Source of the DNA: Candidatus Parcubacteria bacterium
GTDB taxonomy: Bacteria > Patescibacteriota > Minisyncoccia > Sungbacterales > SURF-37
Direction: 5' to 3'
DNA: 64,000 bases
NCBI GenBank assembly: GCA_003599755.1
Contig: QZJO01000009.1
Span: forward strand, 86,140-150,139
Shown here one piece after another: positions 14,471 through 36,433 of this stretch. The notes below the pieces were generated by a model, which was given only the letters and a program-made list of their open reading frames with translations, was not told the DNA's origin and ran no database searches. The position numbers and the translations under genes were made by a program. Position 1 is the first letter of the stretch; every line of letters begins with the position of its first letter.

Positions 14471-14480
14471 TGTGGATAAC
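14471..14480 (+). promoter_or_regulatory. DnaA-box-like site TGTGGATAAC (reverse complement of TTATCCACA) in the non-coding region upstream of efp.
   Basis: Exact 10-mer, one of four identical copies in the window, all intergenic. Confidence 0.4.
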
Positions 14481-14896
14481 CCGGGGGCAACAACTGGGTA
14501 TACTGAGTATGTTCAGTTCCCGCAGCGTGGGATATCGGCCGGCAGCGTCCGCGCGCGACCCATCAGAAGTTCTTTCCCGCGGCATTGCGCCGCTTTTCCG
14601 AATCGAGTTCTTTACTCGACTATCTCCCGCCACGGCAAGCTCCTTCAACTACTATTCTCTTTCTCACAGGGTTTTTACTCTGCGGGAATTGCACCGCAAC
14701 GGTGCACACCTTCACTGGTTCCCTTTTCCATCTCCGGGCGCCGAGTGGAGATCCACCGTGCGCACGGAGACCGCCAGACACGCGGTCTCTTTTCTTTCAT
14801 GCGTATACGCAATGCGCTGCGGCACGCGTATTGCGCACGGTCTCTCGTTCGTAGTACGCTCGTTGGGGTTATCCTCTCACTCGCCAACCGAACATC

Positions 14897-15466
14897 ATGC
14901 TCAGCATCAACGACCTCAAGGCCAAGACCATCGTCCTCATCGATGACGCGCCCTATCAGATCACCGAAATAAAACATTTGCACATGGGGCGGGGCGGTTC
15001 ATCGGTGCAGACGAAAATAAAAAATCTCGTCACCGGCCAATTGTTCTCAAGAAATTTTAAGCCAGGTGATACCTTCGAAGAAGCGGATATCGAGAAACGC
15101 GAACTCGTACATCTGTACGCGCATCGCGGCGAATATGTATTCGCGCCGAAAGAAAAACCGAGCGAGCGCTACACGCTCACGAAAGACCAGCTTGGCGACA
15201 CGGTGCAGTGGCTCATCCCGAACACGCCGGTCACGGCGGTCTTTCTCGACGACAAACTACTCGGCATCACCGTGCCGATTAAGATAGATTTCAAAGTTAC
15301 CGAAGCGCCGCCTGGGCTCAAAGGCGATACGGCGAGTGGCGGCACGAAGCCCGTGACTATCGAGACCGGCGCGATTATCAACACGCCTCTCTTCATCAAC
15401 GCCGGCGATACGATTCGGGTGAATACCGAGACCGGCGAATACGCGGAACGCGTCAGCAAGGGCTGA
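14897..15466 (+). CDS. efp: Elongation factor P.
   Basis: 189 aa with the three-domain EF-P pattern (KAKTIVLIDDAPYQITEIKH...GRGGSSVQTKIKNLVTG). Confidence 0.9.
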   Translation: MLSINDLKAKTIVLIDDAPYQITEIKHLHMGRGGSSVQTKIKNLVTGQLFSRNFKPGDTFEEADIEKRELVHLYAHRGEYVFAPKEKPSERYTLTKDQLGDTVQWLIPNTPVTAVFLDDKLLGITVPIKIDFKVTEAPPGLKGDTASGGTKPVTIETGAIINTPLFINAGDTIRVNTETGEYAERVSKG

Positions 15467-15476
15467 CGCGTTTTTT
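15449..15476 (+). terminator. Rho-independent terminator of efp.
   Basis: CGCGTCAGC-AAGG-GCTGACGCG followed by TTTTTT. The stem overlaps the efp stop codon. Also lies at the 3' end of the convergent ATPase gene. Confidence 0.8.
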
Positions 15477-17430
15477 AATCCAATCGGATTACCTCGCCCG
15501 GCGCCATCGCACTTCCACGCGGTGCGGCCGGTTCTTTTTTTCTCGGCCGCGATTCGATTGCGGGCGGCGGCGCAGCGATATCTTTCTCGTTCGATCGCGG
15601 CGGCATTTGCGCTGCCGGAACGCTCGCGGCGGCAGGGATTTTTTTCTCGCGCGGCTGATCGCCATTCATCGCCTCCGCAAGCGCCTTGCGCAGCTCCCCG
15701 AGATGATGCGCGGAGCGGCTTGCGTCGGCCTGCTTTGACTGATCGGAGCGCCGTTCGGACTCGCGCGCCGGCGCGGCCGGGCGAAGTTCTTTCAGCGACA
15801 ATGGTTTGGCGTCGCGCCGCGCGTTTCGATCGCGGCCGCCCTGCGGCCGCTCCCCTTGTTTTGCGGCAGAAGCGGACGCGGAAGATGTCGGAGCAGCACC
15901 GGTCGGCGCTGCCGCATCGGTTGGCGCGGTAGCGCCGTCGGCCATCTGGGAACGAAATTGGATCAAGTGCATATGTTCCTCGCAAAATACCGGCCGCTTG
16001 CCGTCGGGTTTGAACGGCACCAGGATCGACTTCTGGTCCACGGCGCATTTGGCCTCGTACATCGGCCGATCGGGTTTAGCCGCGGCAGCGCCGGCTGAGC
16101 GCAAGCCCGCGCCCGGAACCGCTTCAAAGCCGCCCAACGTGAATTCGCGAATCTTTTCCTCGACCTGGGCGCGCGGCGCGCTGTAGTGCTCCCGCGAGTA
16201 TTGAACAATCTCTTTGACGAAGGACTGCGCCGGCGTCGGCATCGGCGGCAGGGTCTCGGCCGAAAACGGCCGAGACGTCAGCCCGTCGATCATGAGTTTG
16301 AGATACACTTGCTTGAACCCGAGGTTAACGAGGTCCTGGACCATGAATTCGGGCATGAATTCTTTTTCCAAGAGTTCCGCATCTTCGGCGCCGATACGGA
16401 ACGTAATCATCGTACCGACGTTGCCGAAGATGGCATGCTGCACCTCCTCTTCCATTTGCGCAATGTATTGATGCGCAACGGTCAGGTTGAGACGGTACTT
16501 GCGCGCCTCGGACAAGATGTTTGCGAAGGACTCGGTGGCGAAGTTCTGGAACTCGTCGACGTAGAGGTAGAAATCTTTACGCTCGGGTTCGGGGATATCC
16601 ACGCGGCTCATGGCGGTAAGATACAATTTCGCCACCATCATGGCGCCCAAGAGCCGCGAATTCTCCTCGCCGATGTTCCCTTTCGAAAGATTTACGATGA
16701 AAATCTTCTGCTCATCCATGATGGCCCGCATATCCAGGGACGTCTCGACTTGGCCGATGACGTTGCGGATCAGCGGATTGCCGGAAAACTGGCCGATCTT
16801 GTTCTGAATCGCGGCCACGGCCTCGCGCATGTATTGCTCCGGATACTTGGCGAATTCGTTTTCCCAAAAACCCCGGATGACCGGATCGGTCAGCTGCGCC
16901 ACGATCTGGCGCCGGAATTCCTTTTCGCCGAACATGCGATTCACGGATAACAGCGTCGAGCCCTTTACTTGCAGCAGTGCGAGAATGGCATTGGCCAGAA
17001 GGTACTCCATGCGCGCGGACCAAACCTCCGGCCCGAAAATCTTTTTGAACACGCTCAAAAGGCCCGAGGTAATCAGATGTCGTTGGTCCTCGGCCACGGC
17101 TTCCATGACATTGAACGCCATCGGATATTCGATATCCACCGGATTGAAATACACAACGTCCTTGATGCGGTGCTCGGGCACAAATTGGAGCACCCGCTCG
17201 GCGTATTCGCCGTGCGGGTCCACGACCGCGACGCCATGACCGGCTTGGATATCCTGGATGGTCATGTTTTCCAGAAGCGTGGACTTGCCCATGCCGGTCT
17301 TTCCGATGATATAGACGTGCTTGCGTCGATCGCCGCGTTGGATGCCAAATCGCCGCCGCTGGCCGCGGAAGTTCGTCTCGCCAAAAAAGGTGATGTCTTT
17401 GTCGGATGCTCTGCCGTCCATGGATGGCAT
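15475..17430 (-). CDS. HerA/FtsK/VirD4-superfamily P-loop ATPase (DUF87/AAA_10 N-terminal domain plus TraG-D_C-like C-terminal module), with a low-complexity Ala/Pro/Arg-rich tail.
   Basis: Walker A YIIGKTGMGKSTLL; DUF87 hallmark VVDPHGEY; Walker B LYVDEFQNF; LTVAHQYIAQMEEEVQHAIFGNVGTMITFRIGAEDAELLEKEF resembles the TraD/TraG C-terminal motif. No TM segments. Confidence 0.7.
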   Translation of the reverse strand: MPSMDGRASDKDITFFGETNFRGQRRRFGIQRGDRRKHVYIIGKTGMGKSTLLENMTIQDIQAGHGVAVVDPHGEYAERVLQFVPEHRIKDVVYFNPVDIEYPMAFNVMEAVAEDQRHLITSGLLSVFKKIFGPEVWSARMEYLLANAILALLQVKGSTLLSVNRMFGEKEFRRQIVAQLTDPVIRGFWENEFAKYPEQYMREAVAAIQNKIGQFSGNPLIRNVIGQVETSLDMRAIMDEQKIFIVNLSKGNIGEENSRLLGAMMVAKLYLTAMSRVDIPEPERKDFYLYVDEFQNFATESFANILSEARKYRLNLTVAHQYIAQMEEEVQHAIFGNVGTMITFRIGAEDAELLEKEFMPEFMVQDLVNLGFKQVYLKLMIDGLTSRPFSAETLPPMPTPAQSFVKEIVQYSREHYSAPRAQVEEKIREFTLGGFEAVPGAGLRSAGAAAAKPDRPMYEAKCAVDQKSILVPFKPDGKRPVFCEEHMHLIQFRSQMADGATAPTDAAAPTGAAPTSSASASAAKQGERPQGGRDRNARRDAKPLSLKELRPAAPARESERRSDQSKQADASRSAHHLGELRKALAEAMNGDQPREKKIPAAASVPAAQMPPRSNEKDIAAPPPAIESRPRKKEPAAPRGSAMAPGEVIRLD

Positions 17431-17433
17431 AAA

Positions 17434-18717
17434 CTAAATCGGCAATGTCGGCGGAGGCTCCGCGCGCCGCGCCGGAATGCGCGGCAACAGCGGGGCCTTG
17501 GTTGCCAAGCCTGGAAAATGGAAAATCGTCGCAAGCTCTTCGCTATTCAATACGATCCGCTTTGATTTCATCAGAATGGTATCGGTGAAGCGCTTGCGCA
17601 GCCGGAAATATTTATAGAAGAGCTGCTTCTTTTCGAGCTTCACCTTGCGCTTGAGGAATCCGGGCCACCACCAGGTAGTTGCCGTGGCCATGGCATTGCC
17701 ATTGAGTTTAAAGCTATTGAGCGTAAGCGTATTATATTGCTTCAGGCCGCCGATGAATGAGGACAGATGGGATAGGCCGAAACGGTCACGCCGCGCGATA
17801 TAGGTGAAACGGATCACCGTCGAGAAGCCCGGCTTTGTGATGTTGCGGGAGATCGCCTTAATCTGCTCTTCGATATTCGCCGGAATCATCTTGAATTCGA
17901 ATGCCGGCTTTTTCTCCGGAGCCGGTTGCGCGGTTCCGAGTAACGCGCCGGATAATTCCTGCGCTATCATTCCGATCATGCTTTTTTTCTCCGGTACTTT
18001 TTCCCCCGCGAGTTTTTTGATCAGCGCCTCACCCTCGACTTTCCAATCGTCATCCTCCGCCGGTTGGAACAATAGCTGGTAGGCCATGTATTCGCCCGGC
18101 CCGATTTTACCGAACGCTTCGGCCATGGACGAAAACGGATCGACTTTCTCATATTCCTCCTGGCCCGGCTGCATGGAGACGAAATCCCGGTAGGTACGGA
18201 TCGGATAGGCATCTTCTTTCGCCAGGGAAAATTCGATGCCGAACAAATCCCATTCGGGCGTCGGCATGGTCGGCGGCAGTCGCCGGACGTAGTCCTCCAC
18301 TTCCACGACCTCGGCTTCGGGATACTGGGCGTAGAGATGGTTTTCGACGACGTTGCGGAAAAAAACCGGCGTGCGGATGTAAAAATGCACCTCGCCCTCG
18401 AGCGAGACCATTTCGAATATGATGTAATCGCGCTGCAGCCCCTGCCACCAGACCTCAAGCGGATCCAACGACCAAATCATGGTCTGCAATCCGCCGTAGA
18501 GCTGCTCCATCGCCTCAGGTGTTTTGGGGATGTCGCGCGGAATGCGTATCTCCAAAAGTACCCATTCGAGATTGGCGAAGTACCGTACCTTCAAATAGTA
18601 CTTCCAGAGCGCCCTGCCCGTGACAAAGAGCATGGGCGGCATCCACATCCACCACGTGTGGCTAAACAGCGCCACAACGATCGCGAGGTTATCAAGAAAA
18701 TCGAAGATGAATCCCAT
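17434..18717 (-). CDS. Hypothetical membrane-anchored protein (427 aa, one N-terminal TM, Trp-rich). Probable partner of the downstream ATPase.
   Basis: 4-nt gap to the ATPase gene on the same strand. TM segment FLDNLAIVVALFSHTWWMWMPPMLFV. No recognised domain. Confidence 0.5.
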   Translation of the reverse strand: MGFIFDFLDNLAIVVALFSHTWWMWMPPMLFVTGRALWKYYLKVRYFANLEWVLLEIRIPRDIPKTPEAMEQLYGGLQTMIWSLDPLEVWWQGLQRDYIIFEMVSLEGEVHFYIRTPVFFRNVVENHLYAQYPEAEVVEVEDYVRRLPPTMPTPEWDLFGIEFSLAKEDAYPIRTYRDFVSMQPGQEEYEKVDPFSSMAEAFGKIGPGEYMAYQLLFQPAEDDDWKVEGEALIKKLAGEKVPEKKSMIGMIAQELSGALLGTAQPAPEKKPAFEFKMIPANIEEQIKAISRNITKPGFSTVIRFTYIARRDRFGLSHLSSFIGGLKQYNTLTLNSFKLNGNAMATATTWWWPGFLKRKVKLEKKQLFYKYFRLRKRFTDTILMKSKRIVLNSEELATIFHFPGLATKAPLLPRIPARRAEPPPTLPI

Positions 18718-18831
18718 AGAACTAGTATACGAAAGGCGGCGTTGCGGCCCAACCTATCGCGCTGGACAAGTTCCGGCCTACCATACGCCGACGGCTGCGG
18801 TTTTCAAGCGACCGGAACCCGAATGCCCGAC

Positions 18832-19872
18832 TTAGACCAGCTGGTACCCCTCGGTTGACCGGCGAAAGAGATCCTTGTTTTGCAGATTCAAAAACACGGT
18901 ATTCGGCTTCACGAAGCGCTGCGCCAGCACCCGCTTGGCGATCTCTTCTTTGGGCAGCGGCCGCTTCGCATTGCGCAAAATTTCGGCAATGATATCGCTG
19001 ACCGTGCCCGGCTGGTAGCCCCATTCGGACAACGCATACAGCCCCCGCCCCACGAGCACGAATCGGGAATCCTTGATCAGTTCATTGTGCACGGTCTGCG
19101 GATGCGCCCGGTGGTTGGACCAGCCCGACTTCGAAATGGCGCCCGCCACTTCCCGGAAATGCATGGGCTTTTGGGCCCGCGCGAGTACCGCGTAGGCCTT
19201 GTCCTTCACGCCGCGCGGTCGGATCGTCGGCCACGAGACCAAGCCGAACTCGCCATACGGATTCTGCTTGATGAGTTTCGAGATACTCAAATACGATTCG
19301 AGCGTATCGGGATTCGGCACGGAGCCAAGCACGTCGCGCGCGTGCGTCTTCAAAATCTGGAACATATCGGCCGCGGGAATGGGCTTTTTCTTTTCGGCCA
19401 ATTCTTCGGCCGCGCGGGCCATGATCGACTGCGCGGCTTTCAGCGATTCTTCTTTCGTATACCAGCGGTCGTGCCACGTATCTTCCTCGCGCTTAGCCGA
19501 AAACGGTTGGCCGACGGTCAACAGGAAATACACGTGATTGTGGAATTTCGGTTCAATGACCGAATGGAGCAGCTTTGATTCCTCGCACACGTGTCCGTGA
19601 TGGGCAAAATGATTTTCGAGTGCGGCAAACGTCGGCGCGAATGCGGCGACGGCCTCGGATTTGGCAAGCTGGCGCAATCCCTCGGCTTCGATCTGGCGCA
19701 CCCGTTCCCGAGTGACCTTGAACGAGCGACCAATGGATTCGAGCGTCTCGGGTTCCTTACCGCGGAGCCCAAACCGGCGCTCTAACACCTCGCGCACCCG
19801 CGCCGAAGGAAGCGACTTGAGGGCAGTCGCGATCACTTCGCGGGGATGGACGGGAAGAGTAAGTTTTTGCAT
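18832..19872 (-). CDS. Sigma-70 region-4-like HTH protein with a C-terminal HARE-HTH (RNAP-delta-like) domain.
   Basis: N-terminal [28 protein letters not shown] matches sigma-70 r4. C-terminal [24 protein letters not shown]...[18 protein letters not shown] matches the HARE-HTH pattern. Confidence 0.6.
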
Positions 19873-19881
19873 GGCTCGGAT

Positions 19882-20793
19882 CTACGCGGCTCGCATGCGT
19901 CCGGCACGGCGTTCGTCCCAGCGGCGCCAGGTAACCAGAAGCGGGCTTGCAATACAGATAGAAGAATACGTTCCGGCAATAATGCCGATAATCAAGGTAA
20001 TACTGAACATTTTGGTGCTCTGGCCGCCAAAGAGCCACACGGCCCCTAACGCCAGAACCACAGTCAGCGAGGTATTGATCGATCGGACGAGCGTCTCGCG
20101 CACGCTTCTGGCCACCAGAAGCGAAAACTCGTCCCCCGGGCGGCGGGAAAGATTCTCGCGGACCCGGTCAAACACTACAATCGTATCATGGACCGAAAAG
20201 CCCAAAATTGTCAAGATAGCGGTCACAGCAAGCATATCGACCTCGTATCCCCAAAACATTCCGGCTAGCGCGAAGAATCCGACGGGTATGGCGACATCGT
20301 GCAAGAGGGCGATGACGGTTACGATGCCGTATTTCCAAGACGCAACAGGCAATGAAACCTTTCGGAAGGCAAATGCGATGTAGGAAACGATCAGGAGGAT
20401 CACAAGGCCGATCGCGACCAGCGATCGGCGGGCCATTTCGCGGCCGATCGTCGGGCCGATGGTATCGTAGCGGCGTTCGGCGAACTCCCCGCCCGTATGG
20501 CGTACCGCGGCGCCCAGGGCCTGATGCTCTTCTTCGGTGACATGGCGAAACCGCAGGATCATTCCCTGCTCACCCGTCGGTTGGATGCTTACGCTGCCCA
20601 GATCCAACGGCGCGATAGCCGCTCGCATGGCCTCTACCTCCGGCCGCGCGTTCATGAATTCTATTTCCCAAAGCGTGCCGCCGGTAAAATCAATGCCGAG
20701 GCGCAATCCGGCAAATACCAATAGCACCACGCTTGCCGCGATCACGAGCGCCGAAAGGCCATACCAGAGCGAACGAAGTTTGATGACGGACAT
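19882..20793 (-). CDS. secF: Protein-export membrane protein SecF.
   Basis: 303 aa with the SecF pattern (GIDFTGGT...VHDTIVVFDRVREN). Confidence 0.9.
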   Translation of the reverse strand: MSVIKLRSLWYGLSALVIAASVVLLVFAGLRLGIDFTGGTLWEIEFMNARPEVEAMRAAIAPLDLGSVSIQPTGEQGMILRFRHVTEEEHQALGAAVRHTGGEFAERRYDTIGPTIGREMARRSLVAIGLVILLIVSYIAFAFRKVSLPVASWKYGIVTVIALLHDVAIPVGFFALAGMFWGYEVDMLAVTAILTILGFSVHDTIVVFDRVRENLSRRPGDEFSLLVARSVRETLVRSINTSLTVVLALGAVWLFGGQSTKMFSITLIIGIIAGTYSSICIASPLLVTWRRWDERRAGRMRAA

Positions 20794-20799
20794 AACCGA

Positions 20800-22161
20800 T
20801 CAAGAAGCGATACCGCGCGCGAATCCCGACGTGAACAGCCACCGCGCCCGTCCCAGGCGGGGCGCGAGCGCCGCGAATAGGAACGTCCGCGATACGGTGA
20901 TGGCCGACAGCATGGAAATGAGCACCCCGATGCCGAGCGTCAGCGCGAATCCACGCACCGCGCTCTGGCCGAGCCAGTACAAGATGAGCGCCGTGATCAA
21001 GCTCGACACGTTCGAATCGCGGATCGAAGTCCAGGCGCGAGCGAATCCTTCCCGGATCGCCGCCGGCAAATCGCGGCCGCGCTCCAGCTCTTCACGCATG
21101 CGTTCGAATATCAGAATATTCGCGTCCACCGCCATGCCGATCGAAAGAATGAAGCCGGCGATGCCCGCGGCGGTGAGCGTTACCGGAATCGCCTTGAACA
21201 ACAAGAGCATAATCGCGGCATAGATGACCAACGCGAGGACCGCGATGAGGCCGGGCAGCCGGTACCAGAAAAGCATGAAAACCGCGACCGCAAGAAACCC
21301 GACCACGACCGCGGCCAAGCTCTTCTGGAGCGAATCTTTGCCGAGCGACGCTTCCACCGTCTGCTGGTTGACGAGCGTGATCGGAACGGGCAGCGCGCCG
21401 GCGTTCAGCCGCCGTACCAGTTCCCGCGCTTCGGCGACCGTAAATTGACCCGTGATCTGCGCGCGGCCGCCGGTGATCGTCTCGCTCACCACCGGGGTCG
21501 AAAGCGGCGCGCCGTCCAAATAAATCCCGATAGGCCGGCCGACGTTGCGTGCGGTGATGACCTCGAACAATGCCGCGCCTTCATCGGTAAACTGCACGCT
21601 GATGAGCGGAGCGTTGGTCGTAGGATCGAACTGCAAATCCGCGCGCTCAAGATACCGGCCAGTCAGTTCCGTGGGCTGGAAAAACGGATCTTCAATCACT
21701 TCTTCGCCGTTTTGCGCGCGTTCGAGCAGCGCCTGGGTTTCGGCTTCGGGCCGCGGCTCTTTGAATTCAAGAAACGGCGTCTCGCCGATCTGACGGATCG
21801 CCTCGTTGATGTCGCGCACGCCGGCGAGTTCCACCGCCAGCCGGTATTCGTCGCCCGAGCGCTCTACTTGCACGACGGGTTCCGTGACGCCGAAAAGGTT
21901 TACCCGCCGTTCGATCACGTCGCGCAGGCCATCCATGGCCTCGGCCGGCGAGGCGCCGGCAAACGACGAAAAATCGGCGCGATAGAGCAGATGCGTCCCG
22001 CCTTGGAGATCAAGACCAAGACGGTACGGCCGCGTGACCGCGCCGATGCCGGGAATCGCGGCAAGCTGCGGCACGAAATCAGCGACCGCAACGGCGCCGG
22101 CGATCATGCCGACGACCAAAATCAGGATTGCCGCGATGCGCAGGCGAAACGTTCCGTTCAT
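20800..22161 (-). CDS. secD: Protein-export membrane protein SecD.
   Basis: 453 aa (LGLDLQGGTHLLY...MAVDANILIFERMREE). Adjacent to secF. Confidence 0.9.
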   Translation of the reverse strand: MNGTFRLRIAAILILVVGMIAGAVAVADFVPQLAAIPGIGAVTRPYRLGLDLQGGTHLLYRADFSSFAGASPAEAMDGLRDVIERRVNLFGVTEPVVQVERSGDEYRLAVELAGVRDINEAIRQIGETPFLEFKEPRPEAETQALLERAQNGEEVIEDPFFQPTELTGRYLERADLQFDPTTNAPLISVQFTDEGAALFEVITARNVGRPIGIYLDGAPLSTPVVSETITGGRAQITGQFTVAEARELVRRLNAGALPVPITLVNQQTVEASLGKDSLQKSLAAVVVGFLAVAVFMLFWYRLPGLIAVLALVIYAAIMLLLFKAIPVTLTAAGIAGFILSIGMAVDANILIFERMREELERGRDLPAAIREGFARAWTSIRDSNVSSLITALILYWLGQSAVRGFALTLGIGVLISMLSAITVSRTFLFAALAPRLGRARWLFTSGFARGIAS

Positions 22162-22230
22162 GCGAACGAAGAGTCAATGGATTTCTACTCTACGGAAAAC
22201 GGCCCGATAAGGCAAATCAGCCGAACCGAT

Positions 22231-23028
22231 TCAGAGCTTGGCCGGGATAAAATTGCCTACGCGTTCCCGCCAGATGCAAAACACGCATTCCGGGCTCGGG
22301 TCGGGAATCGGCTGTTCGAGGACGGTGATCCCCCGCTTGATGCGCGGCAGGACTGAGAGTGGATCGGTCTTCAATGTTTTGACCACCACGGCCATTTGCA
22401 CGCCATTGTGCAGATCCTCCGTGGAATCCGGATAGTAATAGATCAGGTGGCCGATGCCCGAAGTCGGCTTGCCGTTGGATTCGAGCAAAAACGCATACGC
22501 ATCGAGCTGCTCTTGATAGGAAGCGTACATTGCCCGCTCGATGCGCGGATCGGAACTCGAGGTCTTGTGGTCTACGGGCGTATACGTGCCGTCGGCGCGA
22601 ACCAGGCATTCGTCGAGTTTTCCCTTAAATCCGTATTGATCGTCCACGCGATAGAAATACTCCTCTTGGAACGGCGATTCGAGCCGGCCCTCGACGTGGC
22701 CGGCCACGATCGGCGGCAACTCGTCTGTGCCGCGAAAGCGGTCGAAATAATGCTTTACCAGTACGTCAAAGCGGTTCGCAAGCCGCGAGACAATGCCTTC
22801 GGGCTGGTAAATCCCTTGCCGATACTGCAGCCAAAAACAGCGCGGGCAGCGGTCCAGGCCGCCGAGACCCGTATGCGAGAGCCAGATCTTTCGGCCGTTG
22901 CGTCCGTTAGCCGCAGGCTTGGCGGCCGGCACGGATTTCGCGTTTTCGTTCAGCGGCATACTCATTTGCATATTCCGTTGGAGATCGCCTTTACCGGCAT
23001 ATCGCACAGCGCACCATGGGCTCTGCAA
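22231..23028 (-). CDS. Stand-alone Cas4/RecB-like PD-(D/E)xK nuclease with a 4-Cys Fe-S cluster.
   Basis: N-terminal CPRC and C-terminal ECVFC cysteines; VDHKTS (D..K) and QEQLDAYAFLL (QxxxY) motifs typical of the Cas4/AddB nuclease domain. No CRISPR array or other cas genes in the window. Confidence 0.65.
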   Translation of the reverse strand: MQSPWCAVRYAGKGDLQRNMQMSMPLNENAKSVPAAKPAANGRNGRKIWLSHTGLGGLDRCPRCFWLQYRQGIYQPEGIVSRLANRFDVLVKHYFDRFRGTDELPPIVAGHVEGRLESPFQEEYFYRVDDQYGFKGKLDECLVRADGTYTPVDHKTSSSDPRIERAMYASYQEQLDAYAFLLESNGKPTSGIGHLIYYYPDSTEDLHNGVQMAVVVKTLKTDPLSVLPRIKRGITVLEQPIPDPSPECVFCIWRERVGNFIPAKL

Positions 23029-23160
23029 ACCATCAGCCCGCTTCCGCCATCATTGGCGATTTCTAACGGGGCACACCATCTCAGTATAGTGATCGATCGG
23101 AAAAAAGAAACCCGTCACGCGCTTGCTGGCGCGCGACGGGTCCTCGAGGTTATGGAGGCG

Positions 23161-23541
23161 TCAATCGTCGCAGCCGGGCCGGTCGCGCGGCGGCACGAAA
23201 CTCGCCAACATGCGCCGACTTTCCGCGGTCACACGCTCGAGCTCGGCATGCGCCGCAGTGTCAGGAATAATCTCGGGATTCCCAACGAGCTGCCACCGAC
23301 GCTGGCGCCCCGAAAGGAGCACCTCGATTTGATGGAGCAAGCGCGTCCGGACGATGGCATCCCCTTCCGCATAGTGGCAGGTACATGCAGGCAGGTCTTC
23401 CAGATTGAACTCGATGATGAAGACCCGCGCCGGCATCGCCACCATACGAATCGGGAATGCGCCGCGCATTGCGCGATCGATGTTGTGAGCTGCCGGTGCG
23501 TCGGGGTGCCCTCGATACACCAACGTGAACTTCGCGTACAT
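23161..23541 (-). CDS. Hypothetical protein (126 aa).
   Basis: ORF track only; no recognised motif. Sits between dinB and the Cas4-like gene on the same strand. Confidence 0.35.
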   Translation of the reverse strand: MYAKFTLVYRGHPDAPAAHNIDRAMRGAFPIRMVAMPARVFIIEFNLEDLPACTCHYAEGDAIVRTRLLHQIEVLLSGRQRRWQLVGNPEIIPDTAAHAELERVTAESRRMLASFVPPRDRPGCDD

Positions 23542-23579
23542 GCGCCCCTCCTGGCGATCGGAATCAAGTGTGCTGCCGA

Positions 23580-25031: not shown

Positions 25032-25079
25032 GCGCCCTCCTTTCCGCTATCGCGTGTCTAGCACAACTAAAATCACGGA

Positions 25080-26630: not shown

Positions 26631-26646
26631 CTGAGGATAACGAGAA

Positions 26647-26874
26647 TTATCCGGGCAATTCCCGCATCAACCATTGGACGCGCCCGACCTCGCCAGTTTT
26701 CAGGCGTACTTTGATACCGCGCGGATGAAATTCGCGCGGGGTGAGAATATCCTGCACGAACCCTTGCGTATAGTTGTTCGTGCCGTAGTGCTCCTTTTCT
26801 ATGATCCAGACCGCATCGCCCGGCCTGATTTTCGAGCGCGGCGGCGGATTCGGATTGTCATTGCCCGGCTCCAT
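26647..26874 (-). CDS. YwbE-family small protein (DUF2196).
   Basis: IRPGDAVWIIEKEHYGTNNYTQGFVQDILTPREFHPRGIKVRLKTGEVGRVQ matches the YwbE consensus (...G.V.DILT....HP.GIKVRL..G.VGRV). Confidence 0.65.
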   Translation of the reverse strand: MEPGNDNPNPPPRSKIRPGDAVWIIEKEHYGTNNYTQGFVQDILTPREFHPRGIKVRLKTGEVGRVQWLMRELPG

Positions 26875-26914
26875 GACATTTCTTAGGGCGCAATCCTAAC
26901 AGGAAATCACTGTC

Positions 26915-29659: not shown

Positions 29660-29773
29660 TGATTCGCAAAAAGCCACGCCATTGTAGCGCAGCAAATCCG
29701 TATTGACAACGGCAAACGGGCGCGCGAGGGTAAGCACCAGCGAAGCGTTCATTCAACCCCGAAGGAGGATACG

Positions 29774-30733
29774 GTGGCGATCAACGACATCGGCCGGAAA
29801 CACAATGATATCGACTACAAGAAGGGAATCATCTGGGACCGCTGCGATGAGGGCCGCGAGACCGGCCACCGCTACATCGCCATCTACGCGCATGAGATGA
29901 GCCGGATGCAGGAGATCGTGCTCCTCCGGCTCGCCCGCTTCGGCGATTCCCTGTGGCTGCGCACGCTGGACGGCAAAGACCACCTCTGGCCCCAGTACGC
30001 CTGGGCCGACGAGCACCACTTCCACCAGCTCCAGGCGCTGCTGCCCTGCCTCCAGCACCGGCGGCCCAAGCGCGTCCTCATTCTCGGCGGTGGGGACTTT
30101 CTCGCCGCGTGGCGCGCGACCATGGTCAAGTCCGTCGAACACGCGAAGATCGCCGACTGGGATCCGCGCCTCAGTGAGCTTGTGCTCAAGCATCAGCCGT
30201 GGGTCGAAGCGACCGGCACGCACAAGCGCGTGGAATGGGGCGAGCCGGTCGACGTGCGGAAATTCCTGCCCCGCAACCAGGACGAGCAATGGGACGTGAT
30301 CATCGGCGACCTCACGGACCTGACGGCAATGAACACGCTCGTGCCTGACTTCGCCGAGCATGTCTTTCGCATCCTGAAGCCCGGCGGCGTATTCTCCACG
30401 CAGGCCGGATCCCTGTCGGTTGCGCCGGGATCCACCCACGGCCTCCGCGACGGCATCGCAGCGCTCAAGAAAGCGTTCCGCGTGGGTACGAAAAACGGTG
30501 GCCGCGTGGAGGTGCTCTGGTGGCCAATCGAGTCGTTCAGCTACCCCCAGGCCTTTGTGCAGGCCTGGAAGGAGCAGCGGATGCTGCCCGCATGTCCGAC
30601 TGCCCAGACGATCTGGCGCCGCTGCAGCGTCACCGAGCTCAAGAGCGACCGTCCGTTTCTGAACGCCGAGATCGCAGCCCGCGCCTTTGCCGTTCCGCTG
30701 GAGTTTCAGCGGTGGCTCGGCCTCGCCTCCTAA
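29774..30733 (+). CDS. speE: Spermidine synthase-like aminopropyltransferase.
   Basis: VLILGGGD ... VIIGDLTD match the SpeE AdoMet-decarboxylated binding motifs. Confidence 0.75.
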   Translation: MAINDIGRKHNDIDYKKGIIWDRCDEGRETGHRYIAIYAHEMSRMQEIVLLRLARFGDSLWLRTLDGKDHLWPQYAWADEHHFHQLQALLPCLQHRRPKRVLILGGGDFLAAWRATMVKSVEHAKIADWDPRLSELVLKHQPWVEATGTHKRVEWGEPVDVRKFLPRNQDEQWDVIIGDLTDLTAMNTLVPDFAEHVFRILKPGGVFSTQAGSLSVAPGSTHGLRDGIAALKKAFRVGTKNGGRVEVLWWPIESFSYPQAFVQAWKEQRMLPACPTAQTIWRRCSVTELKSDRPFLNAEIAARAFAVPLEFQRWLGLAS

Positions 30734-30745
30734 AATAGCCGATGC

Positions 30746-30783
30746 GCGCCGCTCCCGAGCCCGGGAGCGGCGCTGTTGTTTTT
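30746..30783 (+). terminator. Rho-independent terminator of speE.
   Basis: GCGCCGCTCCCG-AGC-CGGGAGCGGCGC followed by TGTTGTTTTT. Confidence 0.8.
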
Positions 30784-30788
30784 AATTA

Positions 30789-30824
30789 AGAAAACGCCGC
30801 GAGAGGAAACTCACTCTCGCGGCG
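30789..30824 (-). terminator. Rho-independent terminator of the convergent speH gene.
   Basis: Minus strand reads CGCCGCGAGAG-TGAGTTTCC-TCTCGCGGCG followed by TTTTCTTAATT. Confidence 0.75.
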
Positions 30825-30878
30825 CTGGATCGGCCTCGCCGATCTTGAGTCAACCACCGTGGCGACGATCCGTGCTCG

Positions 30879-31340
30879 CTACGACGGCGTGGCAGCGGTT
30901 TGACCCCGCTGAAGCGTGGGCGATGGGGCCACCGGATTCGCCGGCACCGGCGAAGGATCAGCCGGCGGCTGCTTGTGGGGCCGTGGAGGTCCCATGAACA
31001 TGCCGCGCCGCAGTTCGACGACAGACGTGCGTTCGGCGCCGAACTGCTCGATAAGGAAGTTTGCTGCGATCTCCGGCTGCAGCACGTCGCCGCAAGAGAA
31101 GACATCCACCGCGGCGTAGCAGTACTCGGGCCATGTATGGATCGCCAGATGCGACTCGGCGATTACCACTACCCCGCTGATGCCGAAGGGGTTGAACTCG
31201 TGGAACACGACATCCACGATGGTGGCCTGTGCGCGCTTGGCCGCTTCGACGAGGGCACCTTTCACGCCCTCGAGGTCCGTGATCGCCCCGCGATCGCAGT
31301 CGAACAGTTCCAGCAACAGGTGCCGTCCCAGTGCGTTCAC
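30879..31340 (-). CDS. speH: Pyruvoyl-dependent S-adenosylmethionine decarboxylase proenzyme (SpeH-type, class 1B).
   Basis: VVVIAESHLAIHTWPE: ES|H processing site (Ser to pyruvoyl) and HTWPE motif. Confidence 0.75.
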   Translation of the reverse strand: MNALGRHLLLELFDCDRGAITDLEGVKGALVEAAKRAQATIVDVVFHEFNPFGISGVVVIAESHLAIHTWPEYCYAAVDVFSCGDVLQPEIAANFLIEQFGAERTSVVELRRGMFMGPPRPHKQPPADPSPVPANPVAPSPTLQRGQTAATPS

Positions 31341-31409
31341 CCTTCACACCTCCCTTCGGCACCGCGTGGCGCCGTTACGAAAGAGCTTGCCGCGCCCCCG
31401 CGGCTCAGG

Positions 31410-31841
31410 TCACGCGATATTCGCGTGCGGGTATTCGGTCCCTCGGACCACGATATTGGTTTCAACCTTCCGGATGCCGAATACCTTCCGGAAGTAGCTG
31501 ATCACGGGTGTGGTGTTGAAATTCCGGCAGGAATAGACATCGATGCTGACGAACCGCCGGCGCGGAAACGTATGTACGCTGATGTGCGATTCTTGGATCA
31601 TCACGAATCCCGAGAATCCCCCGGGATCTTTCTTATCGTTCCCGGCCGCCTCGACGACGTAGGGCGGGCAGAGCGGATGCATGCGCATGCGCAACGGCAA
31701 TTCGGCCAGCGAACGCGCCACCAGCGCAAAGTCATTAAGTTTCTTGAAATCACAAAAATAGCCATCCAGGGTCAGATGGAGTCCGAAATTCTTCGTGGTT
31801 TTCCGATTGTCTGCCCGACGCTTCAGGCCGTTTCGTTTCAA
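31410..31841 (-). CDS. Second AdoMetDC-family pyruvoyl enzyme paralog. It could be a diverged AdoMetDC or an arginine decarboxylase derived from it.
   Basis: FVMIQESHISVHTFPRRRFVSIDVYSC keeps the ESH/HT.P motifs, but overall identity to the neighbouring copy is low. Confidence 0.65.
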   Translation of the reverse strand: MKRNGLKRRADNRKTTKNFGLHLTLDGYFCDFKKLNDFALVARSLAELPLRMRMHPLCPPYVVEAAGNDKKDPGGFSGFVMIQESHISVHTFPRRRFVSIDVYSCRNFNTTPVISYFRKVFGIRKVETNIVVRGTEYPHANIA

Positions 31842-31860
31842 CTGAGAATGAACGCGCTCG

Positions 31861-32277
31861 TCAGATACTCTCGTCCCGTATCCGTCCTTCTCGGTAGAGG
31901 CGCGCCGCGCGAGAAAGATGGAGATCCTTCTTCGCGCGCCGCGCTCCGCGGAGCAACCGCGATCGTGAGCGCTCTTTCACCTTGGTAATATCCCGCTTCA
32001 AGATATCCGCGAGCCCATCGATCGCCGCATGGATATCTTCGGCGTCAGCCCGCTGCCAAAGTTGTTTCTGCGGCAACTTGCAGTTCGCGGCCGCGGACCA
32101 CACGATTCCCTTGCGATGATGGCGCGTGTCGCGTATCAACTCGAGTTCGAGTACGGCAGCGGCATACGCCGGATCGCGGCCGAGAAGTTTGGCCACCGGT
32201 TCGACGATCTTTTCGCCGACGTAGCGGCGAATACTCGGCGTCACGGTAAGGCCTACACCCTTTACCACGAGCTTCAT
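31861..32277 (-). CDS. hpf: Ribosome hibernation-promoting factor / RaiA family (S30AE).
   Basis: MKLVVKGVGLTVTPSIRRYVGEKIVEPVAKLL matches the HPF N-terminus (MKL.I.G.N.E.T.AI..YVE.K). Start taken at the internal Met (track ORF begins 9 codons earlier). Confidence 0.75.
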   Translation of the reverse strand: MKLVVKGVGLTVTPSIRRYVGEKIVEPVAKLLGRDPAYAAAVLELELIRDTRHHRKGIVWSAAANCKLPQKQLWQRADAEDIHAAIDGLADILKRDITKVKERSRSRLLRGARRAKKDLHLSRAARLYREGRIRDESI

Positions 32278-32313
32278 CGCCTGATTATAGGAATTTTTGT
32301 GCAACCCACAAGT

Positions 32314-32323
32314 GTGGATAACT
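32314..32323 (+). promoter_or_regulatory. DnaA-box-like site TGTGGATAAC, 10-37 nt upstream of the hpf start.
   Basis: Exact copy of the recurring 10-mer. Confidence 0.4.
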
Positions 32324-32414
32324 CAATTTGACCGTATAGAGCCGGATCGGCGGCCGTCCAAATATCCGTACGTCGCACGCGTCCGTACTCGACGAGGCGG
32401 CGCGCGGCAAACAT

Positions 32415-32439
32415 AAACGCCCCTCATCGAGGGGCGTTT
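32415..32439 (-). terminator. Palindromic hairpin AAACGCCCCTCATCGAGGGGCGTTT with a weak T-rich flank on the minus strand. Probable terminator between the tiny basic ORF and hpf.
   Basis: Perfect 11-bp stem (AAACGCCCCTC / GAGGGGCGTTT). Core motif CCCCTC-ATCGA-GGGG resembles the rRNA terminator at 6993. Confidence 0.5.
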
Positions 32440-32460
32440 ATGCGTAATGGCGAATCGCGG

Positions 32461-32523
32461 TTAGCGGCGGCGCTTCTTCCCGCCTTTCTTCGCCTTCTTC
32501 GCTGCTTTGCGGCGTCGTGCCAT
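32461..32523 (-). CDS. Speculative 20-aa highly basic peptide MARRRKAAKKAKKGGKKRRR.
   Basis: ATG...TAA ORF followed by a terminator hairpin. No obvious SD. Below the ORF-track length cutoff. Confidence 0.15.
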   Translation of the reverse strand: MARRRKAAKKAKKGGKKRRR

Positions 32524-32685
32524 AGGTCAAAACGAGTTAACCGAACGATCGCGAATCCGCGAACCGTTCATTGATGCGGGTACCGACCGTGTACTCGCGT
32601 GATGCGCGCCCGCACTGCGGACGGCGCGAGCGAACCAATGTTCACTCACTCCATAAATTGTAGTACATGACAAGTCGTTGACAAC

Positions 32686-32695
32686 TGTGGATAAC
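32686..32695 (+). promoter_or_regulatory. DnaA-box-like site TGTGGATAAC, preceded by TTGACA (32678..32683).
   Basis: Exact copy of the recurring 10-mer in a locally AT-rich intergenic stretch. Confidence 0.4.
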
Positions 32696-32784
32696 TTTTA
32701 TTTCATCTGCAGGCCGTGCAGGCGGCCGAGCGAATGAAACCCGCCTAAATTTTTGAAAAACGTTAGGCGGGTGGAAATCCTATA

Positions 32785-33774
32785 TCACCCCCGTTTCGCC
32801 AGCGGCTCGCGCTCGGTGGCAGAATCTTCAAATCCGATATATCGAATTTCTTCTTCCAAGAAAATGCCGAACATGCGATGCACGCGCTCCTTTGCAAGCG
32901 CGATGAGCATGACGACGTCTTCGGCGCGCGCATTCCCGACATTGATAATAAAGTTGCCGTGGCGCTCTGAAATTTTTGCGCCGCCAATTTGGTATCCTTT
33001 GAGCCCCGCGCGATCGATCAAGAGCCCTGCTGCAATGCCGGGAACGGTTCCGGAGCGTCCTACATCCGGAAATTGCCGCAGCACGGCATCCTTGTCGATA
33101 TCGCGGCGCGTCCATGGAATATTTTTGAATGCACAGCCGGCCGTCTGCGCGCCGATATCTTGGCCCGCATGGCGCTTGAACGTGTAGGCGCGCACAAGCT
33201 CTTGGCCCCGAGCGGCATCACCCGGCTGCAACGCCAGGCGCGCCGCAAGCACGACCAGCTGCGGCGCGCGCTTGAACATACTGTCCCGGTATCCGAATGC
33301 GCATGCCGCGGCCGGCACATCGCGCGCCGCGCGGGCTTCGGTGTCGTATGCGAGAATCGATACCACGACATCTTTCATCTCGGAGCCGAAGCAGCCGGCA
33401 TTCCCCACGACCGATCCGCCGATGGTTCCGGGCACGCCGATCGCCCATTCAAACCCGCGGAGGCCATGCACCAACGTATCGGCGACGACGCGCGCCATCG
33501 AAACACCGGCATCGGCCTCGACAACGCCATTCTCGTGGCGAACGCCGCCGCCGACCGGATGGATGACCAGACCCGGAAATCCGGCATCGGAGACCAAAAC
33601 ATTCGATCCCGCGCCGAGAACCATCCACGGCACGCCGTGATCCTCAGCAAAGGAAAAAGCCGCGATCCATTGGTCGCGGGAATCAACGTCGGCGTAGAAC
33701 CGGGCCGGACCGCCGATGCGAAACACCGTATGCTTCGCCAGCGGCTCGTGCTCCTTGATATGCAAATCAGACAT
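32785..33774 (-). CDS. murB: UDP-N-acetylenolpyruvoylglucosamine reductase.
   Basis: TVFRIGGPARFYADV...FAD-binding N-terminus and C-terminal MurB domain (GGAKISERHGNFIINVGNARAEDV). Start taken at MSDLHIKEHEP. Confidence 0.9.
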   Translation of the reverse strand: MSDLHIKEHEPLAKHTVFRIGGPARFYADVDSRDQWIAAFSFAEDHGVPWMVLGAGSNVLVSDAGFPGLVIHPVGGGVRHENGVVEADAGVSMARVVADTLVHGLRGFEWAIGVPGTIGGSVVGNAGCFGSEMKDVVVSILAYDTEARAARDVPAAACAFGYRDSMFKRAPQLVVLAARLALQPGDAARGQELVRAYTFKRHAGQDIGAQTAGCAFKNIPWTRRDIDKDAVLRQFPDVGRSGTVPGIAAGLLIDRAGLKGYQIGGAKISERHGNFIINVGNARAEDVVMLIALAKERVHRMFGIFLEEEIRYIGFEDSATEREPLAKRG

Positions 33775-34239
33775 GTGCATGCAAAAACGGAGGCCTTGCA
33801 CGTTTCCTCACAAGGGCTATGCAGGGGTAGACTCTCCGCCTGCTCCGCGCGGCGTATTCGGCGGATTGCTGTTTGCCTGCCCAGCACTTAGGCGAAGCCC
33901 ATAGTGCTGGGCATTTGCTTGCCCTCCCACCATTCCGCGTTCACGAGGGCTGCAGAGGGTGAACTCCAATTCTATTTGTCATTTGTGAGTGCCAGCTCTG
34001 CAACCCACCTCAAGGCGGAATGGCGGGAGGTTGAAAGTGCCTGTCCCTATGACCCATGCGGCAAGCGTGTCCATCATACGACGCAAGATCCGTCCTCGTC
34101 TTCCTACCCTATACCCGGCAGTACAACCCTTTATAAACCCTCTGTAAACTATTTTCCAATGTTTCCATACGAATAACCTTTACAGCGCGCCGCATTGTAC
34201 TGCCGGGTATACTCCCGAAAGGGGCCAGGGAACGCCCGA

Positions 34240-34283
34240 GCCGAAATACAAACGTATAAAGCCCCGGAGAACCGGGGCTTTAT
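34240..34283 (-). terminator. Rho-independent terminator of the peptidoglycan-binding protein gene.
   Basis: Minus strand reads AAAGCCCCGG-TTCT-CCGGGGCTTT followed by ATACGTTTGTATTTC. Confidence 0.7.
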
Positions 34284-34389
34284 ACCGACAAATAGATGGA
34301 TCTTCCGGCGAACCGGAAGGTACACTCACATACTTATCCGTAGCAGACCGCTATGCCGCTGTCAAGGCCTCTCCTTCCACAAGCACCGG

Positions 34390-35571
34390 TCATTGGCCCT
34401 GGAGAAGCTTAATCTGATCCTGCAGTGCCTGGATTTGCGCTTGCAATTGTTGAACCATCGCAGGATCCGGCGTGCTGGACGGCGTCTCAGAGCTTGCTGC
34501 CGGAGTCGGCGTCGGCGCCGCGGATCCCATGAGCTCGTTCAGCTTGGCGCGGGTCTTCGGACCCACGATGCCGTAGCCGGGATCATCCGGTCCGGCGATG
34601 CCATGCCGTTCTTGGAAACGCTGAATCGCGCGCGTCGTTAGCGAACCGAAGTAACCGGTGACTAACCCCTCCGGATAGAGTTCCGTGTCTTGAGCGAGAA
34701 ACTGCTGTAATGCGGTTACCGCATCGCTTTGGCTGCCCTGAGCGAGCATTGCCGTGAACACGAATCCTGTGGATGCCGCCGCAGGCGGTGTCGCCGGAGT
34801 CGGGGTCGGCGCAGGAGCCGGAACGGTGGCGCCGCCAAATACCTCGATCAGTTTGGCGCGGGTCTGCGGACCAACACGACCGACTTGCGGCAGGCCTTGG
34901 CTGGCTTGGAACCGCCGCACTGCCGCCGCGGTCGCGGGACCGAAGTAACCGGTCACGAGGCCCTCGGGATAAAGCGCGGAATCCGTCGCGAGTAAGGCCT
35001 GGAGTTGCGCGACATCGTTGCCGTCATCGCCCGGATCCAAATCACGGGAGAAGATATCGAGAAGATTCGGGACCGACGCAGGCGCAGGTGCCGGGGTCGG
35101 CGCCGGAGTAGGCGTTGGCGCAGGTGCCGGAACCGGTGCGGGCGAGCCGCCTCCGCCGCCGCCCCCTCCTCCACCACCACCGCCACCACTGATGATGCCT
35201 CCGCCTCCGCCGCCACCCGAACTTGATGAGGTGCACTCAGTAGCCGTAGGCGTCAGCGTGAACGTTACTGAAGGCGAAATATTGCGCTCGAAGCGGACAG
35301 ACCAGGTTTCCCCGCAGGTTTCCGTCGCGGTCGGGGCATCCGAGTATGTAAGTTTGGTCGTATCCGGCGACGTGACCGTCAAGGTCTCGCCCTCACCCAT
35401 GGTTACCTGGATATTCTGGTCGGACACCGTAATAGAATTCACGTTCCCGCCGACCGTATAATTCTTGCCGCCGACCGGCGCGGTAATACCGATGTCCACC
35501 ACCGCAGCGGCGGCAATCGCTGGTGCCAAAACCAGTCCTGCGGCAATGCCGATAAGAAGATATCGCTTCAT
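34390..35571 (-). CDS. Secreted protein with two peptidoglycan-binding (PG_binding_1-like) repeats and a poly-Gly/Pro-Ala linker.
   Basis: Signal peptide MKRYLLIGIAAGLVLAPAIAAAA. Repeats ...DVAQLQALLATDSALYPEGLVTGYFGPATAAAVRRFQASQGL... and ...AVTALQQFLAQDTELYPEGLVTGYFGSLTTRAIQRFQERHGI... Gly run of >20 residues. Confidence 0.7.
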   Translation of the reverse strand: MKRYLLIGIAAGLVLAPAIAAAAVVDIGITAPVGGKNYTVGGNVNSITVSDQNIQVTMGEGETLTVTSPDTTKLTYSDAPTATETCGETWSVRFERNISPSVTFTLTPTATECTSSSSGGGGGGGIISGGGGGGGGGGGGGGSPAPVPAPAPTPTPAPTPAPAPASVPNLLDIFSRDLDPGDDGNDVAQLQALLATDSALYPEGLVTGYFGPATAAAVRRFQASQGLPQVGRVGPQTRAKLIEVFGGATVPAPAPTPTPATPPAAASTGFVFTAMLAQGSQSDAVTALQQFLAQDTELYPEGLVTGYFGSLTTRAIQRFQERHGIAGPDDPGYGIVGPKTRAKLNELMGSAAPTPTPAASSETPSSTPDPAMVQQLQAQIQALQDQIKLLQGQ

Positions 35572-35634
35572 ACTATGCGCGGATGCCGGACACGAGAGAT
35601 GCCGGCCGGCAACCGCAAAAGGAATTACCGCAGA

Positions 35635-36306
35635 TTACTGGCAGCGACCTTGTTCAACGACGAGCAGTGCGGTGCCGCCGTTTGTCAGGTTGGAAGTAGA
35701 CATCTGGAATGCGGTTGTCGACGTTCCGCCGCCGTTTCCCACGTAGACGCGCACCCAACTGTTGTTCTCTCCTCTCAATTCAATGCATCCGCCCTGGCTC
35801 GCCGACGTTGACTCGACCGAGAGCGTAGTCGTTGCGGCAGATCCCAATGCCGCGTCTCCTGTTACGCCCAGTTCCTGATATGGACTGGTGGTGCCGGACA
35901 CGCCCAGGCGTGAATTAAAGACGCCAAGTTCATCAACGACCAGGTTGCCTTGCCCGGTCGTCGCTTGGCCCACGCCGAGTGCAACGCTGAAGTATCCCGA
36001 GCCGCTCACGTTGAACGTCGTTACCGGCGAGTTCGTCGAAGCGCCGGCGGATAGCGTGCTATAAAACAGGCCGACGCCCGTTGCCTGCAGCGTTGAGGAG
36101 GCATATACCGCGCCCGTAAGGGTAGACGCGCCCGTTACGGTCAGCGTGCCGTCCGTGTTGATATTCGTGCTGATCGTCGTGGCCGATAAGACGCTATAAG
36201 AAACCGCGAGTACGAATATGGCAGCCAAAAGACCGACCATAATGATATCCCGCTTCGACACCAGTGAACTGAACGTGGTCCGCATATGTTCTCCCGTTCT
36301 ATACAA
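35635..36306 (-). CDS. Membrane-anchored Thr/Ser/Gly-rich hypothetical surface protein (223 aa).
   Basis: N-terminal TM segment IIMVGLLAAIFVLAVSYSVL followed by a T/S/G-rich repetitive sequence. No pilin-type prepeptidase site seen. Confidence 0.45.
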   Translation of the reverse strand: MYRTGEHMRTTFSSLVSKRDIIMVGLLAAIFVLAVSYSVLSATTISTNINTDGTLTVTGASTLTGAVYASSTLQATGVGLFYSTLSAGASTNSPVTTFNVSGSGYFSVALGVGQATTGQGNLVVDELGVFNSRLGVSGTTSPYQELGVTGDAALGSAATTTLSVESTSASQGGCIELRGENNSWVRVYVGNGGGTSTTAFQMSTSNLTNGGTALLVVEQGRCQ

Positions 36307-36423
36307 ATAAACACCGTATGCGACCGGAACGAAACCGCTTCCGGCTGAGTATTAGGGATAGGCGACTACCTATCGCCCTGCTTGCATTACTATACCAGGA
36401 AAAAAAACGTTCAATACCGCGGT

Positions 36424-36433
36424 TGTGGATAAC
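36424..36433 (+). promoter_or_regulatory. DnaA-box-like site TGTGGATAAC inside a short palindrome GCGGTT-GTGGAT-AACCGC, in the divergent intergenic region before the glycan locus.
   Basis: Exact copy of the recurring 10-mer. Confidence 0.4.

Follow-up and report, generated by a model that had tools for sequence, protein, structure and literature searches.

Single DnaA-box sequences beside predicted promoters in a Candidatus Parcubacteria contig and its relatives

Why should an exact 10-mer, known as a binding site of the replication initiator DnaA, recur between the genes of a stretch of DNA that carries no replication genes? The sequence in question, hereafter the window, is a stretch of 64,000 nucleotides from a Candidatus Parcubacteria bacterium (GenBank assembly GCA_003599755.1, contig QZJO01000009.1, positions 86,140 to 150,139), whose EF-P, MurB, and Hpf proteins are closest to those of Candidatus Sungbacteria/Sungiibacteriota and neighboring Parcubacteria metagenome-assembled genomes. 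A preliminary description had reported four identical, always intergenic copies of the 10-mer and interpreted them as a conserved protein-binding site rather than a repeat element. Our analysis bears this out. Four exact copies of TGTGGATAAC are present, all on the plus strand, at 14471-14480, 32313-32322, 32686-32695, and 36424-36433 (sites 1 to 4); the second had been placed one base off, at 32314-32323. The expectation is 0.07 copies, and none of 100 dinucleotide-preserving shuffles reached four. The 9-mer TTATCCACA marks the same four sites, with a 9/9 match at each, against 0.19 expected. When genes were mapped by codon-usage score, with Pfam as a check, 9.7% of the window was left as intergenic DNA, and the chance that all four copies would fall there is ~9e-5. 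The minus-strand reading of each site is GTTATCCACA, after which come promoter-like hexamers and a gene on that strand; GTTATCCACA is the top repeated 9/10-mer among those restricted to intergenic DNA in the window. Only two one-mismatch copies of the 10-mer occur (12530-12539 and 26632-26641), both in non-coding DNA. The sequences flanking the four copies are unrelated to each other; therefore, the motif is not a repeat element. The equation with the high-affinity DnaA box was also correct: R1 and R4 of the Escherichia coli replication origin (oriC) contain the identical 10-mer, as TGTGGATAAC and GTTATCCACA, respectively, within a 256-nt oriC segment that was matched at 100% beside mioC in E. 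coli chromosomes.

We examined how each site is placed relative to its neighboring genes. Site 2 (32313-32322, minus strand) had been described as lying just upstream of hpf, and this assignment holds. The minus strand reads GTTATCCACA, c, TTGTGG, 16 nt, TATAAT, 6 nt, and ATG, such that the box ends 1 nt before the -35 hexamer of the predicted hpf promoter (32284-32311; -35 TTGTGG, 32311-32306; 16-nt spacer; -10 TATAAT, 32289-32284). The gene (31861-32277, minus strand) encodes the 138-aa ribosome hibernation-promoting factor (Pfam Ribosomal_S30AE; NCBIfam yfiA/HPF), and its start at ATG 32277 was set by ortholog alignment. In five genomes (the window and the related loci L173, L171, L001, and L002; L numbers designate loci used for comparison), the ATG lies 6-8 nt past the -10 element without a Shine-Dalgarno sequence. 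This predicts a leaderless hpf mRNA, and the position of the ATG places the promoter independently of hexamer scoring. Across the same five genomes, nothing at hpf is invariant except two blocks, GTTATCCACA-n-TTG and the beginning of the coding sequence.

Site 3 (32686-32695, minus strand) lies between murB (32785-33801, minus strand) and hpf, as initially described, but the TTGACA that had been noted in front of it is the reverse complement of a minus-strand -35 hexamer, TTGTCA, and the predicted target is a tiny basic open reading frame (ORF). Here the layout is GTTATCCACA, g, TTGTCA, 16 nt, TACAAT, a leader of ~125 nt, a 20-codon Lys/Arg-rich ORF, and a terminator. The box again precedes the -35 by 1 nt, the predicted promoter spanning 32657-32684 on the minus strand (-35 TTGTCA, 32684-32679; 16-nt spacer; -10 TACAAT, 32662-32657). 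The ORF (32461-32523, minus strand) is translated as MARRRKAAKKAKKGGKKRRR followed by a stop, and a terminator hairpin comes after it (32415-32439). In 10 genomes with GC contents from ~46% to 60%, TTATCCACA-R-TTG is the sole invariant block downstream of murB. The ORF itself is conserved at 13-24 codons (L001, L002, and L040), and the versions in L062 and L073 are longer, AKKA-repeat, and histone-H1-like. A promoter on the plus strand (TTGACA, 17-nt spacer, TTTCAT) was considered and rejected: its -10 is poor, the murB terminator lies ahead on that strand, and the minus strand is the one that carries the conserved ORF. Separately, the leader of the ORF (~32528-32650) contains a conserved hairpin with the loop CGGTCGG, and the ORF could encode an unannotated small ribosomal or nucleoid protein.

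At the other two sites, the box is set slightly farther from the promoter. Site 1 (14471-14480, minus strand) had been listed as upstream of efp (14897-15466, plus strand), which is divergent from a gene whose 543-aa product has a MerR-type helix-turn-helix (HTH; Pfam MerR/MerR_1) at its N-terminus (12595-14226, minus strand). The minus strand reads GTTATCCACA, 7 nt, TTGCCG, 16 nt, and TATTCT, the last being a -10-like element 29 nt past the box. The promoter predicted for the MerR-HTH gene thus occupies 14436-14463 (-35 TTGCCG, 14463-14458; -10 TATTCT, 14441-14436), and the promoter scorer agrees with this prediction. An orthologous module, comprising the box, ~29 nt, TATTCT, and three GTATAn repeats, is found in L165 and L169/L170, and the N-terminus of the MerR-HTH protein is 53-58% identical to the proteins of L165, L169, and L170 that share this upstream module. 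In L169, the gene and its module do not adjoin efp. We consequently rejected efp as the target of site 1, given that the box-promoter module stays with the MerR-HTH gene. Two further features of this region deserve mention. The three GTATAn repeats, spaced by 9 bp, directly follow the predicted -10 (14405-14435, minus-strand reading); they are kept with the MerR-HTH gene in L165 and L169 and may be that gene's own operator. Between site 1 and efp lies a conserved unit of ~300 nt (~14500-14800, plus strand) with an intrinsic terminator at its end (14766-14799). This unit can be aligned in part with L161 and L165, gave no match in Rfam, and could be a small RNA or an efp leader/attenuator.

Site 4 (36424-36433, minus strand) had been assigned to the start of a large glycan locus. 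It does lie in the divergent region upstream of the first gene of that locus, a GT4 glycosyltransferase (Pfam; 36527-37693, plus strand), but the box faces the opposite gene, which encodes an uncharacterized 216-aa protein with a hydrophobic N-terminus (35635-36285, minus strand; ATG at 36285, GGGAGA upstream). Sequence reading and the promoter scorer both place an extended -10 element for this gene, TGgTATAGT, at 36389-36397 on the minus strand, with GTTATCCACA located 29 nt before it. The 216-aa gene is thus the likely target, and the glycosyltransferase gene is a possible second one. An orthologous divergent pair in L003 (GT4 44% identical; a 210-aa protein 36% identical to the 216-aa protein) is separated by a region with two perfect boxes, one toward each gene, such that the L003 glycosyltransferase has a box of its own. 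In L171, the orthologous site reads TTATACACA and lies 30 nt before TATACT. The palindrome GCGGTT-GTGGAT-AACCGC, in which site 4 had been reported to be embedded, is real but absent from the orthologous sites; we treat it as coincidental because it is not conserved. Taken together, the motif, its identity with the DnaA box, and its association with promoters, including that of hpf, withstood scrutiny, whereas the efp assignment did not and the glycan-locus assignment remains uncertain.

Beyond the window, each of the four sites has counterparts at orthologous promoters of relatives, despite diverged flanks. Compositional bias would have left the motif equally frequent in coding DNA, as the preliminary description pointed out, and this is not the pattern observed. 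In the window and 16 related loci combined (310 kb), 56 kb of intergenic DNA holds 30 boxes against 0.46 expected, an enrichment of ~65-fold, while 254 kb of coding DNA holds 4 against 1.55 expected, which is not significant. Part of this 17-locus set was selected after boxes had been seen. The loci retrieved by efp and by MurB, picked beforehand without regard to boxes, therefore provide the fairer test, and they display the same enrichment: 8 boxes against 0.47 expected in 84 kb of efp loci, and 19 against 1.64 expected in 188 kb comprising the top 11 MurB loci. No enrichment was found across 149 other loci totaling 2.16 Mb, including more distant members of the candidate phyla radiation (CPR), where 20 boxes were counted against 15 expected. 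Metagenome loci retrieved by SecA fall mostly outside the box-rich clade and were used as a negative control only. The window holds 4 boxes in its 64 kb, and the clade has ~1 box per 9 kb.

The boxes also occupy preferred positions. Downstream of TTATCCACA, a TTG is found at offset 1 in 10/34 cases and at offsets 6-8 in 11/34, and a TAnnnT at offsets 23-24 in 9/34 and 27-30 in 16/34. Most intergenic boxes aim at a co-directional gene start, with forward promoter scores exceeding reverse scores; a minority are inverted, the -35 then being 4-7 nt away. Boxes are kept at the same promoters over GC contents of 44-60%. Position next to predicted promoters, intergenic restriction, and conservation are consistent features of these boxes, and a box beside the promoter, as is characteristic of DnaA-regulated promoters, is what we find at the promoters predicted here.

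Variant boxes extend the pattern to additional genes. The one-mismatch box GTTATCCTCA (26632-26641, minus strand) is followed by g and then TTGATG (26630-26625), the same layout as at sites 2 and 3, and lies upstream of an S11 peptidase/YkuD gene. An inverted box, TTATGCACA (12531-12539, plus strand), fits the relaxed consensus TTATNCACA and is found 27 nt before the TATAAT that precedes an MscS-like gene, where it overlaps the terminator stem of the upstream gene. A degenerate 7/9 match (11429-11437, plus strand; AGTGGATGA on the minus strand) is located 18 nt before the -35 of the predicted 23S rRNA promoter (11383-11410, minus strand; TTGACG, 16-nt spacer, TATAAT). Perfect boxes are present at the 23S rRNA promoters of L161 (inverted) and L167 (forward), 17-18 nt before TTGACA, and boxes also appear in the mscS-efp spacer of L161, L163, and L167. 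In L172, the first speD is preceded by its own box-n-TTG promoter. Among one-mismatch variants within the clade, 7/17 intergenic copies differ at position 5, compared with 1/31 coding copies (Fisher p = 0.0017). In the accepted relaxed consensus for DnaA, TTATNCACA, this position is the N, and the tolerance for variants there is DnaA-like, in line with a specificity that leaves position 5 free and keeps CACA fixed.

Which protein, then, would recognize these boxes? An asymmetric, single, orientation-biased site of 9-10 bp fits a monomeric HTH such as domain IV of DnaA. DnaA is the leading candidate because of the identity with R1/R4, the position-5 pattern, the monomer-type site, and its known roles at promoters. 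On balance, we consider the four 10-mers to be probably single high-affinity DnaA boxes in predicted promoters, acting together with RNA polymerase. From the sequence, we infer DnaA as the binder, the promoters as real, and the effect as activation rather than repression. In the model that we propose, domain IV of DnaA, the most likely binder, would be bound as a monomer beside RNA polymerase, with the box placed 1 to 8 bp before the -35 of the minus-strand promoter and 5'-TTATCCACA-3' aimed at the gene in most cases. The box would lie at about -44 to -36 for hpf and the tiny basic ORF and at about -50 to -42 for the MerR-HTH gene and the 216-aa gene. Stable occupancy may arise through cooperation with sigma region 4 or the alpha subunit of the polymerase on the adjacent -35, and the box, serving as a class-II-like activator site, would make these promoters dependent on how much free DnaA is present. 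Genes affected in this manner would be hpf, the small basic protein, and envelope genes, as well as rRNA and speD in relatives. Since a second box is lacking, the presumed source of cooperativity is the polymerase next to the box, whose -35 is 1-8 bp away, and cooperativity supplied in this way would favor activation by mutual stabilization. DnaA can be an activator or a repressor at promoter boxes and can contact polymerase (PMC8203912). At high-affinity boxes, it can activate nrdAB by making the complex of RNA polymerase and DNA more stable (PMC8203912).

Several observations weigh against this model. All of the promoters are predictions, and the enrichment is limited to one clade although DnaA is universal. 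The spacing to the -35 is not unique (1, 6-8, or 17-18 nt) and some boxes are inverted, whereas an activator that depends strictly on the face of the helix would not usually show this. Boxes placed just before the -35 can repress too, as at E. coli mioC, such that regulation could be of either sign. Chromatin immunoprecipitation sequencing in E. coli detected DnaA almost only on pairs of boxes with 2-3 bp between them; of the 32 consensus single boxes, just 13 were occupied (PMC11317965). At the position of such a partner box, 2-3 bp away, the best matches here averaged 3.2/9 against a background of 2.9, with none reaching 6/9. The dnaA gene and oriC of the clade were sought by regular expression and by tblastn with E. 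coli DnaA across 2.5 Mb of loci, with no match. A broader proposal is correspondingly more tentative and, in our view, possible rather than probable: that in Sungbacteria and neighboring Parcubacteria, DnaA has taken on the role of a general promoter-proximal factor through a single -35-abutting box at perhaps 10-20% of promoters, mutual stabilization of DnaA and polymerase replacing the second box needed in E. coli.

The alternative that best survives these data is that the box is the operator of another, lineage-specific monomeric DNA-binding protein that acts beside RNA polymerase and whose site coincides with the DnaA box. Such a factor could be a paralog of DnaA domain IV or a polymerase accessory factor, for example, the protein with a sigma-70 region 4 and a HARE-HTH domain encoded at 18832-19872. 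Enrichment confined to one Parcubacteria clade would be natural for a factor of this kind, as would boxes that are strictly single, unlike the in vivo DnaA sites of E. coli, and the orphan protein with sigma region 4 and delta-like features is 58-77% conserved across the clade. We nevertheless regard this explanation as rather unlikely. The protein would have to have evolved to recognize the exact 10-mer of E. coli R1/R4 together with the tolerance at position 5, which is improbable a priori; region 4 of the orphan protein resembles that of RpoD, a reader of TTGACA rather than of the box; and no Bac_DnaA_C-type paralog was found among the scanned window proteins. The orphan protein is of interest in its own right. 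Comprising 346 aa (18832-19872, minus strand), it combines an RpoD-like sigma-70 region 4 with a HARE-HTH domain resembling the delta subunit of RNA polymerase, is always encoded beside secDF across Sungbacteria, and may be an RNA-polymerase accessory factor.

A second alternative, which we judge improbable, is that the boxes are DnaA titration or reservoir sites (initiator-titration, datA-like) that serve to buffer the free DnaA of a very small cell and do not regulate their neighbors; placement near promoters would then merely reflect accessible, unconstrained DNA. Consensus boxes bind DnaA with high affinity, as titration demands. The high density of boxes would also be explained, with four consensus boxes in 64 kb against 32 per E. 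coli genome (PMC11317965), and coding DNA is without significant box enrichment. Three features are not expected from pure titration: a 1-nt spacing to TTG that is fixed over 10 genomes, a strong gene-ward orientation bias, and the persistence of boxes at the same promoters over GC contents of 44-60%. The two roles, titration and regulation, could also coexist. Finally, chance or a bias in composition, a dispersed repeat or mobile element, and part of a replication origin can be set aside together as exceedingly improbable, given that shuffles expect 0.07 copies and orthologous conservation excludes chance, that flanks are unrelated in the window and only the box and TTG are kept between genomes, and that single boxes spread over 22 kb are accompanied by no dnaA gene, no skew switch, and no AT-rich box cluster. 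One locus among those compared does contain such a cluster. In L118 (3260-3350), a relative retrieved by SecA, five or more DnaA boxes, among them TTATACACA and two adjacent TTATCCACA, lie in a 690-bp AT-rich intergenic region that is probably an oriC, without an adjacent dnaA and in contrast to the single boxes of the window.

The remainder of the window provides context for these sites. GC skew is monotonic across it, with no switch, and no replication genes were found in it. In a study of type IV secretion systems, dnaA was frequently located near virB4 in Paceibacteria; neither gene is among the scanned window proteins. Adjacent to efp, a VirD4/TraG-like coupling protein with a treble-clef zinc finger and a DUF8128 protein are encoded at 15475-18717 (minus strand), an arrangement present in all Sungbacteria loci and with no virB4 nearby. 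A search of the long intergenic regions against Rfam retrieved no credible family. The rRNA genes of the window comprise a 23S with insertions (7062-11126, minus strand; 3.7 kb against the 2.9-kb model) and a 5S after it. No 16S or tRNA gene adjoins them, an arrangement typical of CPR, and the relative L164 has LAGLIDADG ORFs within its 23S copy. Downstream of hpf, two tandem S-adenosylmethionine decarboxylase paralogs (30879-31841, minus strand, and 29774-30733, plus strand) lie beside a spermidine synthase gene.

CPR bacteria (Patescibacteria) have tiny genomes, few recognizable regulators, and almost no experimentally characterized promoters. Conserved, position-fixed DnaA boxes at many promoters would represent a concrete piece of CPR regulatory logic. 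If our model is correct, the initiator would also be a global regulator, through which translation shutdown (by way of hpf) and envelope and nucleoid genes would be linked to replication status. In organisms with few transcription factors, the small basic protein, which may be a nucleoid or ribosomal one, would be coupled to initiator availability along with hpf, rRNA, and envelope genes. These promoters would also offer a natural case of single-box DnaA action with polymerase as the neighbor, as opposed to the dimer requirement reported for E. coli. Of practical value, the combination of box and TTG can serve as a marker for promoters, leaderless genes, and tiny ORFs in these genomes.

How do these boxes compare with established systems? 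Promoters controlled by DnaA boxes include dnaA, nrdAB, mioC, polA, and purH in E. coli, the box clusters of Bacillus subtilis, and gcrA, ftsZ, and podJ in Caulobacter. The genes identified here (hpf, the small basic ORF, envelope genes, and rRNA) are unrelated to the nucleotide and replication functions of known DnaA targets. As a transcription factor, DnaA uses the same 9-mer in promoter regions, and boxes near the -35 can stabilize RNA polymerase (PMC8203912). With the mapped E. coli DnaA regulon as the reference (PMC11317965), the DnaA-regulated promoters of that organism differ from ours, where the boxes are single, have no partner at 2-3 bp, and abut the -35 at a fixed distance. Density differs as well: the 32 consensus boxes per E. 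coli genome correspond to ~1 per 145 kb (PMC11317965), whereas we observe ~1 per 9-16 kb, which is roughly 9-16 times denser. The 10-mer is identical to R1/R4 of E. coli oriC, but here it is unclustered and lacks an unwinding element, replication genes, and a skew switch. Loci such as datA likewise carry high-affinity boxes outside oriC; datA, however, is a cluster with an IHF site, while the boxes described here are single and fixed to promoters. In geometry, the closest parallels are MarA/SoxS/Rob at class II promoters, lambda cI at PRM, and class II CRP, which likewise use an asymmetric site at about -40 to -46, mostly in one orientation. The sites of MarA/SoxS/Rob-type activators also lie beside -35 hexamers that are often weak, as here, but these activators belong to another protein family and recognize another sequence, such that the analogy is one of mechanism only. 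No earlier description of such boxes in CPR was found in the literature library searched. Control of promoters through DnaA boxes is already known; what differs here is the single box abutting the -35 at fixed spacing, its density, the set of genes that it accompanies, and the CPR lineage in which it occurs.

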